Positions 25,387-25,492 of a DNA stretch of 53,425 nucleotides are shown in pieces. Numbering within the stretch: position 1 is the stretch's first letter; each line of letters starts with the position of its first letter. The position numbers and the translations under genes are program-made. Source of the DNA: a virus (Duplodnaviria > Caudoviricetes); IMG/VR virus record IMGVR_UViG_3300031972_002039, positions 1 to 53,425 of that record. One strand, given 5' to 3'. The notes under the pieces were generated by a model. It did not search any database, was not told where the DNA came from, and worked only from the letters and a program-made list of their open reading frames with translations.

Positions 25387-25492
25387 AGGGAGATTAATTG
25401 GAGAGATATATGACGGATTTGAACCGCAACTATTGTTTAAGAGACAATTGCTTTACCTAAAAGCTCGAAGTAACTCTACCATCTACTACCCT
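25387..25492 (-). ncRNA. Y-RNA-like element carrying D, anticodon (CUU) and T arms
   Basis: Same terminal stem and GAGTTACTTCG; insert GCTT TTAGGTA AAGC-A-ATTGT CT[CTT]AA ACAAT-AGTT-GCGG TTCAAAT CCGT. Confidence 0.7.

Follow-up and report, generated by a model that had tools for sequence, protein, structure and literature searches.

The locus described here raises a simple question: what is a gene that standard tools read as tRNA-Lys doing beside a phage Ro60 gene, when the RNA it would encode has no acceptor end? The window, i.e. the whole stretch of DNA that was analysed, is a virus record of 53,425 bases (IMGVR_UViG_3300031972_002039), estimated to be 30% complete and derived from runs labelled as seawater metagenome. 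The gene in question, which we call element B, lies at 25387-25492 on the minus strand, 231 nucleotides upstream of rsr (23691-25154) and on the same strand, rsr being the gene of a phage Ro60/TROVE-domain protein (Rsr) of 487 amino acids. Our answer is that element B is probably a Y RNA gene, whose product is the partner of the phage Ro60/Rsr and offers an anticodon-type loop as a recognition surface in the particle. It is neither a decayed tRNA nor a YrlA RNA. We read it and its relatives, which we named B-type and which consist of a Y-stem 5' motif, a D arm, an anticodon-type arm, a T arm and a Y-stem 3' strand, as a new architecture among Y RNAs, laid out like Yrn1 of Deinococcus radiodurans but with a complete anticodon-type arm.

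The anatomy of element B was established from a reading of the sequence, the predicted fold and a covariance model. From the 5' end, it begins with one strand of a closing, putatively Rsr-binding stem, 27 nucleotides long (AGGGUAGUAGAUGGUAGAGUUACUUCG, 25466-25492), which includes a GUAGUAG block and the motif GAGUUACUUCG (25476-25466). The D arm follows (GCUU/UUAGGUA/AAGC, 25450-25464), recognized in the fold, in the Rfam alignment and by covariation in relatives, and retaining G18-G19. The anticodon-type stem-loop (AUUGU/CUCUUAA/ACAAU, 25432-25448), found alike by ARAGORN, Rfam and the fold, is a perfect stem of 5 base pairs with a loop of 7 nucleotides and the triplet CUU at 25441-25439. Beyond a variable spacer AGUU (25431-25428) stands the T arm (GCGG/UUCAAAU/CCGU, 25413-25427; Rfam alignment, fold and covariation), with four pairs plus one mismatch in its stem and a loop that fits UUCRANY. 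The 3' strand of the closing stem (26 nucleotides, 25387-25412; sequence, fold and comparison with other loci) ends in AAUCUCCCU. Within the closing stem, the segments are the GUAGUAG block, UUACUUCG and AUCUCCC, and the minimum-energy fold of the whole element consists of the three arms on a long, imperfect closing stem. The sequence-only reading of this DNA had described just such a perfect 5-bp stem with a CU-CUU-AA loop between D and T arms, and sequence, Rfam and fold all place it on the minus strand; its further proposal, that a Ro-binding stem takes the place of the acceptor stem, agrees with a closing stem predicted at that position and an arm order that is the reverse of that of YrlA.

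To standard tools this is a tRNA. ARAGORN calls tRNA-Lys(ctt) at 25403-25474, and the Rfam tRNA family (RF00005) scores 33.7 bits (gathering threshold 29, E 0.0025). That match is local, covering model positions 9-63 of 71 and leaving the acceptor stem uncovered, and by our own reading of the sequence the acceptor in the ARAGORN frame has only 3 of 7 pairs and no CCA, so that the RNA is, as had been supposed, unchargeable.

Three features tie element B to Ro60. Firstly, the neighbouring gene is a genuine Ro60 homolog (Pfam TROVE, 8.8e-23), which matches the PDB entries 9KOP/9L5Y, named 'TROVE domain-containing protein', over residues 9-478 (E 9e-20); those entries are the Ro60 of Thermus phage phiLo (PMC12135203). 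Secondly, element B is on the rsr strand and well inside the distance of about 4 kb from rsr that Chen et al. 2014 (PMC4201824) took as the range for Y RNA genes on that strand. Thirdly, the element shares its ends with other RNAs at rsr loci. On the minus strand upstream of rsr four elements, A, A2, B and C, stand one behind another, and the 5' motif GAGUUACUUCG and a 3' AUCYCCC block are common to A2, B and C, the latter block being found in distant loci as well. For a wider comparison, loci were chosen by an alignment of the Rsr protein (the best 80 of 103 viral and the best 80 of 135 metagenome relatives), among which the window Rsr has no close relative, the best identity being 57% in the metagenome set and 52% in the viral set. 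A scan of 78 viral loci with the pattern [AG]TTACTTC[GT] found, in the 1.5 kb upstream of rsr, 77 occurrences on the rsr strand, spread over 48 of these loci, and two on the opposite strand, while the remaining 408 kb held 15 on the rsr strand and 4 on the other. About 7 nucleotides 5' of the motif, related loci have the blocks GGCGAAG, GGUGAAG or GGUGUAG where element B has GUAGUAG; these blocks of related loci fit GNCGAAN0-1G, the published Rsr-site motif, and the UUAC of the motif fits YUAY, as both are given in the text of Chen et al. (PMC4201824). The lineage motif GUUACUUCG is present in element B. The RNAs that follow the motif are of three kinds: short hairpins, permuted heads of the YrlA type, and heads in normal tRNA order like that of element B. 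The linkage to rsr and the shared motifs thus bear out the view of element B as a Y-like RNA.

The B-type elements form a family. We built covariance models from 5 elements (R1), from 20 (R2) and from 22 relatives excluding the window (R3). R3 matches element B along the whole model (positions 1-130 of 130) with 66.1 bits (E 1.3e-12), its best match in the window, whereas the true tRNA at 22.8 kb reaches 41.5 bits in the core only; the higher rank of element B is due to its flanks. At 60 bits or more and full length, R2 found, besides the window, 6 of the 80 viral and 10 of the 80 metagenome rsr loci, two of the metagenome loci being identical. When viral contigs were scanned for the motif in combination with a canonical D arm, 71 stretches were picked out, many of them chance matches within genes and about 15 with further members; the exact pattern of the motif with the D arm of element B itself had no match in viral contigs, and neither had a blastn search in distant mode with 23600-25800 against 50,697 phage records. 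At E values up to 1e-9, R2 gave 49 matches, 47 of them distinct, in 30 of the 36 phage or metagenome sources searched, and after 10 were set aside (motif missing, or 6-7 acceptor-like pairs) there were 37 strict members from 29 sources. Wherever rsr lay inside the fetched stretch (28 sources), the elements were on its strand without exception (44/44), and an Rsr homolog was found in 4 of 5 further records tested. Across contigs of four runs there were no sequence variants over 24900-25900, where only the likely source run spans element B.

The structure of the family is kept by covariation in three helices. Among 20 relatives, 97.3% of the cells were paired, as against 67.9% after shuffling and 33-44% with slid partners, although the alignment was fitted to the model and is to that extent biased towards the structure. 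Changes on both sides were seen at 11 of 14 pairs, including all five of the anticodon-type stem and three of four in the D helix. The closing stem is retained in relatives, and the acceptor mostly is not: 37 of the 47 elements have fewer than 6 of 7 acceptor pairs. A small closed hairpin, i.e. a sealed acceptor-like stem, follows the T arm in 26 of the 47; element B and 20 others are without it. Rfam, applied to ten family loci, returned 110 matches, all tRNA, with the B-type elements matched only locally.

How does this compare to known Y RNAs? Two reports (PMC4201824; 10.1101/312249) describe Y RNAs as tethers between Ro60 and PNPase and YrlA as a tRNA mimic. YrlA, which occurs in bacteria and mycobacteriophages, and element B are alike in lying next to rsr on its strand, in paired ends that form the Ro60 handle of YrlA and a putative one in element B, in an unchargeable tRNA-like head whose D and T arms could form an elbow, and in a YUAY (here UUAC) after the 5' strand. 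They differ in that the parts of YrlA stand in permuted order, from V through T arm and closed acceptor to D arm, while element B has its D, anticodon and T arms in normal order with no acceptor-like stem, and in that YrlA, in the structure described (10.1101/312249), lacks an anticodon loop, while element B has the 7-nucleotide loop CUCUUAA on its stem of 5 base pairs. The order that defines YrlA is found not in element B but in its neighbour, element C (25229-25368, minus strand), a YrlA-type Y RNA by its sequence, fold and comparison with other such elements, which runs from a 5' stem strand through a V hairpin, T arm, closed acceptor-like stem and D arm to a 3' stem strand. The sequence-only reading had remarked on a U-CAU-AA segment in this element; it is indeed there, as the loop AUCAUAA of the V hairpin CGC-AUCAUAA-GCG (loop at 25341-25335), and its context is that of the 'V' stem-loop of YrlA-type RNAs.

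The V hairpins of other phage YrlA-type RNAs (L013, L021, L041, L046, L047, L058 and L069 in our numbering of loci, and others) mostly have a stem of 5 base pairs, UUCGN/NCGAG, with a 7-nucleotide loop YU-NNN-AA, followed by AGGUC and the T arm. A crude scan found 60 V hairpins among 72 candidates, 39 of them with a 7-nucleotide loop, of which 34 had U in second place. By its sequence, the phage V hairpin looks like an anticodon arm with its variable loop. A further arrangement was seen at L002:2809-2933 (plus strand), a tRNA-like RNA with open acceptor ends, in which the anticodon arm is swapped for a long closed hairpin with GGUUACUUCG; its parts are those of YrlA, in one more circular arrangement.

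The nearest precedent for the topology of element B is Yrn1 of D. radiodurans, which tethers Rsr to PNPase, is oriented opposite to YrlA and carries a 5-bp 'anticodon' stem with a 6-nucleotide loop (PMC4201824). Compared by description, the two RNAs share the orientation to the RNA ends, a 5-bp stem-loop in the anticodon position and a T-like arm. An arrangement opposite to that of YrlA had been claimed for element B, and the orientation stands, but it is not unprecedented, since Yrn1 has it (PMC4201824). As published there, Yrn1 lacks a variable region and a clear D arm, its loop is of 6 nucleotides, and BLAST found no orthologues of it. In element B the D arm is full, the loop of 7 nucleotides includes U33 and A37, and the family numbers at least 37. 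Phage precedent exists as well: the Ro60 of Thermus phage phiLo (phiRo60) binds two phage Y-like RNAs and host PNPase, and these RNAs, Yrl1 and Yrl2, which were found via a CGAA motif and stem-loop prediction, are encoded just upstream of the phage Ro60 gene, as here (PMC12135203). The terms 'anticodon' and 'tRNA-like' do not occur in the main text of that paper, and we found no title or abstract on Y RNAs with anticodon loops, although the supplementary Fig. S1 and Tables S1-S2 of Chen et al. 2014 may include phage Y RNAs of this kind.

What, then, is the anticodon-type loop? In its frame it obeys tRNA rules, as judged from the conserved positions and the coupling of positions 36 and 37. Among the 35 strict members with a 7-nucleotide loop, Y32 is present in 35, U33 in 31, R37 in 34 and A38 in 26; U36 is followed by A37 in 15 of 16 cases and G36 by G37 in 4 of 4, and a real phage tRNA-Gln(UUG) likewise has G36-G37. 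Between these fixed positions the triplet varies. The strict set has 18 kinds; the full set of 47, in which 44 elements have a 7-nucleotide loop, has 20, most often GCA (8), GAU (5), UUG (4), and CUU, UAA and UGU (3 each).

The loop CUCUUAA itself occurs in three elements, the one in the window and those that we call L225b and L213d, at loci whose Rsr proteins are 33% and 31% identical to that of the window and 79% identical to each other. The element at L225:2077-2188 is identical to element B over all 17 nucleotides of the stem-loop, and that at L213:11207-11318 has the same loop on a stem that differs by one compensatory flip, whereas the D arms and 3' strands of the three all differ. The lysine-type loop is thus kept in two related phages, as one of many identities in the family. 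L225 and L213 are phages with arrays of 37-38 tRNA genes beside rsr, with B-type elements between true tRNAs, and both hold real tRNA-Lys(CUU) and tRNA-Cys(GCA) genes along with B-type copies that have the same loops. The real phage tRNA-Lys(CUU) genes of L225, L213 and L231 share with element B the loop CUCUUAA, a D arm, an anticodon stem of 5 base pairs and the T loop UUCAAAU; they differ from it in the stem (CUGA/UCAG against AUUGU/ACAAU), and element B is without acceptor stem and CCA, is non-canonical at positions 8, 14 and 15, and has Y-stem strands for flanks. Several phages have multiple copies with different triplets, for example four in L213 and three in L120.

In L188:2560-2680 (plus strand), a Y-type stem with the UUACUUC motif bears AUUGU/CUAUCAA/ACAAU as its sole apical module, with neither D nor T arm; the fold of this element has z = -4.33, and an Rsr homolog is encoded in the same 116-kb record.

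Turnover of the loop was followed in close relatives. Between L110 and L113, whose Rsr proteins are 80% identical, 3 of 7 loop positions changed, as against 2 of the 30 positions of the 5' strand and none of the 38 that make up the D remnant, stem, spacer and T arm. In L023 and L041 (Rsr 78% identical) the anticodon arms are wholly different on a conserved scaffold. Over five close pairs, numbers too small for more than weak statistics, the triplet changed at 4 of 15 positions, the loop frame at 2 of 20, the stems at 0 of 50 and the sequence elsewhere at 31 of 356. The expectation of the sequence-only reading that the loop would be conserved among homologs therefore holds in part: the stem covaries and the loop is identical in L225b and L213d, but there are 18-20 triplets in the family and switches in some close relatives. 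The simple view that the triplet varies freely and the loop is meaningless was dropped in light of the same loop in L225b and L213d and of the recurrence of triplets.

Taking these findings together, it can be hypothesized how element B works. As in all studied Y RNAs, Rsr would bind it at a handle formed by the pairing of its two ends, and this handle would close a core of D, anticodon-type and T arms in normal tRNA order, replacing the acceptor stem; with the handle in that place an L-shape is possible, but charging and decoding are not. The D and T loops (G18-G19; UUCAAAU) would make the tRNA elbow of an L-shaped fold, with the expression and the RNA ends of element B here presumed. The phage Ro60 particle would then display an uncharged look-alike of a lysine-type tRNA to a tRNA-recognizing protein and couple that protein to Rsr. 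We argue that the loop is a selected recognition surface rather than a leftover, because its frame is kept, because CUCUUAA recurs and because a Y RNA exists, in L188, whose head is the loop alone. The identity of the partner is a more tentative matter. It may be a host factor that reads anticodon loops, above all an anticodon nuclease; it may, with similar reservations, be a generic exoribonuclease such as PNPase, for which the loop is merely structural; and other loop-specific roles are a somewhat fainter prospect.

Several observations weigh against the reading of element B as a Y RNA with a selected loop. The published Rsr-site motif GNCGAAN0-1G does not occur literally in it, and neither it nor element C had an Rfam Y RNA family among the matches listed at E values up to 10. 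Its fold energy is ordinary (z = -1.27, equalled by 22 of 200 shuffles), so that thermodynamics alone proves nothing here, and that the element is more than chance follows instead from its match to the leave-one-out model R3. The core of the D loop departs from tRNA rules at positions 8, 14 and 15, which leaves the L shape not assured. Members with a 6-nucleotide loop, an 8-nucleotide loop or a tetraloop exist. In 2 of 4 ortholog pairs with about 79% Rsr identity the triplet was switched, and on a tree built without the anticodon arm the triplets need 33 changes, against a mean of 33.9 when shuffled, although support for this scaffold tree is weak (2 of 41 branches starred) and copies from the same phage tend to cluster; the notion that triplet groups are orthologous clades was dropped on this count. 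Such turnover is also expected from weak constraint on the triplet. Lastly, no neighbour gene of the cassette is conserved, since the 12 window proteins compared each match 0-4 of the 160 rsr loci, and the genomic context therefore suggests no partner.

The alternative that we rate highest is a generic Ro60 tether, in which a tRNA-shaped head recruits a general RNA enzyme (PNPase, or by way of the elbow RNase P, CCA-adding or modification enzymes), and the anticodon-type arm is a spacer that came from a tRNA ancestor and whose triplet drifts. We regard this as possible but not likely. It would readily explain why the triplet does not follow the scaffold tree and differs between L110 and L113 and between L023 and L041, and why some members have a tetraloop or a 6-nucleotide loop; the D and T elbows are the best-kept parts of YrlA in the account given (10.1101/312249), the phage Ro60 of phiLo binds host PNPase along with its Y-like RNAs (PMC12135203), and the B-type copies inside the large tRNA arrays of L225 and L213 fit an origin from tRNA genes. 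A mere spacer, on the other hand, would not be expected to keep Y32, U33 and R37 in 31-35 of 35 members and G36-G37 in 4 of 4, to show an identical loop in three elements that diverge in D arm and 3' strand, or to persist as the only head of the L188 Y RNA, and the V hairpins of YrlA-type RNAs also keep YU-NNN-AA, by the crude scan given above.

A second alternative sharpens a proposal of the sequence-only reading, which took the RNA for an unchargeable decoy or sensor for anticodon nucleases. In this version a host anticodon nuclease with tRNA-Lys as its target would be baited by the RNA, and phage translation would be protected; the RNA might inhibit the nuclease by competition, be sacrificed to it as a substrate, or sense it, with Rsr set free or activated once the RNA is cut. 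The anticodon loops of tRNA-Lys are targets of PrrC. We consider bait of this kind unlikely, though as a minority hypothesis it would be reasonable and consistent with the data. The loops are faithful to tRNA in frame and in the 36-37 coupling, that of element B is the one found in phage tRNA-Lys(CUU), the copies with different triplets in L213 and L120 would suit a set of baits, and the switch of triplet on a nearly unchanged scaffold between L110 and L113 resembles the pattern of an arms race. Moreover, Hughes et al. 2020 proposed that YrlA, through its tRNA-like domain, may act as a competitive inhibitor of an SOS-induced anticodon nuclease (PMC7790460), and PARIS AriB is reported to cleave tRNA-Lys, an attack that phage T5 escapes with its own tRNA-Lys (PMC11455837). 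Set against these points, no nuclease and no RNA ligase, kinase or other RNA-repair gene was seen among the 30 annotated window proteins. The exact 17-nucleotide stem-loop occurs at 43 sites in 185,579 species genomes, none with tRNA flanks (as judged by inspection), and only the 7-nucleotide loop copies tRNA-Lys; stems of this type are found in phage tRNAs with other identities (in viral contigs, AUUGU/ACAAU between flanks resembling D and T arms encloses the triplets AGU, UGU, GAU, UCU and GUU), and the stem of element B is unlike that of the tRNA-Lys(CUU) of L225, L213 and L231. In a separate search, a donor tRNA inside the phage was not found for the L041 element, whose stem-loop occurs once in its 50-kb record, and the stem-loop of element B likewise occurs once in the window. 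Four of the 35 strict triplets (AAC, AAU, ACU and AUU) begin with A, which is rare among real anticodons; some members do not have the 7-nucleotide loop; the bait would presumably have to compete with abundant tRNA; and the turnover statistics, from five close pairs, are weak (4 of 15 in the triplet against 31 of 356 elsewhere).

A bolder extension can be put forth, which we hold to be doubtful and offer as speculation: phage Ro60 particles might carry exchangeable anticodon-loop cartridges, a programmable set of baits or sensors against host enzymes that attack or read these loops. Each Y RNA would copy the loop of one tRNA (Lys-CUU here; elsewhere Cys-GCA, Ile-GAU, Gln-UUG, Leu-UAA, Thr-UGU and others), several would be carried per phage, some of them within tRNA arrays, and identity would be re-set between close phages, with Rsr as the holder that stabilizes the bait or hands a captured partner or RNA to a nuclease.

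A guide function, in which the triplet pairs with a host tRNA anticodon or a codon and delivers that RNA to Rsr and an exonuclease, is very improbable. Complementary anticodons form stable pairs, and the sole pattern in its favour is that of a conserved frame around a triplet that varies, with more than one triplet in a phage. No covarying target came to light, no search for one having been made; the specificity of three bases is low, and presumably no common bacterial anticodon is fully complementary to CUU. The weakest alternative, a decayed tRNA-Lys(CUU) pseudogene or a precursor trimmed to a working tRNA, can draw on the ARAGORN and Rfam scores, on a few relatives (L241 and L198, below) that keep a nested acceptor of 6-7 base pairs and could be processed, and on the M. 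smegmatis YrlA, which is reported to be cut by RNase P and CCA-tailed (PMC4201824), but it is in practice refuted by the sequence comparisons and is scarcely credible, as only 3 of the 7 acceptor positions pair and a CCA is missing, the flanks are conserved Y-stem strands, 37 of the 47 relatives have fewer than 6 of 7 acceptor pairs, compensatory change keeps the helices, which excludes the decayed tRNA with no conserved stem that the sequence-only reading had considered, and R3 scores element B above a true tRNA owing to those flanks.

The two relatives just mentioned, L241:4378-4513 (minus strand) and L198:6003-6139 (plus strand), are full cloverleaves with an A/U-rich acceptor of 7 base pairs, nested in a Y-type stem. 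They resemble tRNAs with a paired leader and trailer, and a tRNA could be set free from them by processing of the RNase P type.

The binding targets of the tRNA-like heads in Y RNAs from bacteria and phages have been an open question since 2014, and the published YrlA head, being without an anticodon loop, gives no hint of a tRNA identity. Here, a recurrent form of Y RNA keeps a complete, tRNA-faithful anticodon stem-loop on a Ro60 handle, with various 'identities' and in multiple copies. As the seven loop bases can be swapped or mutated, the question of what the head targets becomes experimentally simple, and the B-type RNAs are a natural object on which the printed idea of anticodon-nuclease inhibition by a Y RNA can be tested. 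A practical consequence concerns annotation: standard tools label B-type genes as tRNA or tRNA-Lys though they are unchargeable, and counts of phage tRNAs near rsr may for that reason be inflated.

The remaining parts of the cassette, all on the minus strand, are as follows. Element A (25606-25679; sequence and fold) is a tRNA-like RNA that ends in GCACCA and abuts A2; it has a bulged acceptor of 8 base pairs, a good T arm and a weak D arm, and in the anticodon position a stem of 4 base pairs with the 9-nucleotide loop CAGUUAACA. It scores 19.9 bits (E 2) with the tRNA-Sec model, and ARAGORN makes no call. Element A2 (25530-25604; sequence and fold) is a hairpin-type Y-like RNA with the shared 5' motif, scored weakly by R3 (18.4 bits). 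Sequence scans found an intrinsic-terminator-like hairpin with a T run 3' of element C (25182-25211) and a weak match to a promoter-like consensus upstream of A (25715-25744), the sole one on this strand; with 4 promoter-like sites on both strands against 3.3 expected, the latter is no evidence by itself.

Three further features of the window lie outside the cassette. On the plus strand, 2.8 kb from rsr, 19304-20920 encodes an enzyme of the CCA-adding/poly(A)-polymerase family with an N-terminal HD domain; a relative was seen in the flank of one other B-type locus, L018, when the 160 loci were searched. At 22812-22884 on the minus strand is a well-formed tRNA (67.3 bits) with the anticodon CUA, of the amber-suppressor type, which ARAGORN labels tRNA-Pyl; recoding of TAG was considered as an explanation and dropped, as there was no sign of it in the window, where open frames of the standard code take up 87% and, of 53 long frames, 8 end in TAG. 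Lastly, 12371-13342 (minus strand) encodes a dATP/dGTP diphosphohydrolase N-terminal domain (PF18909, 5.3e-30), together with a weak 5'-nucleotidase match, the PF18909 domain being associated with phages that replace a DNA base.

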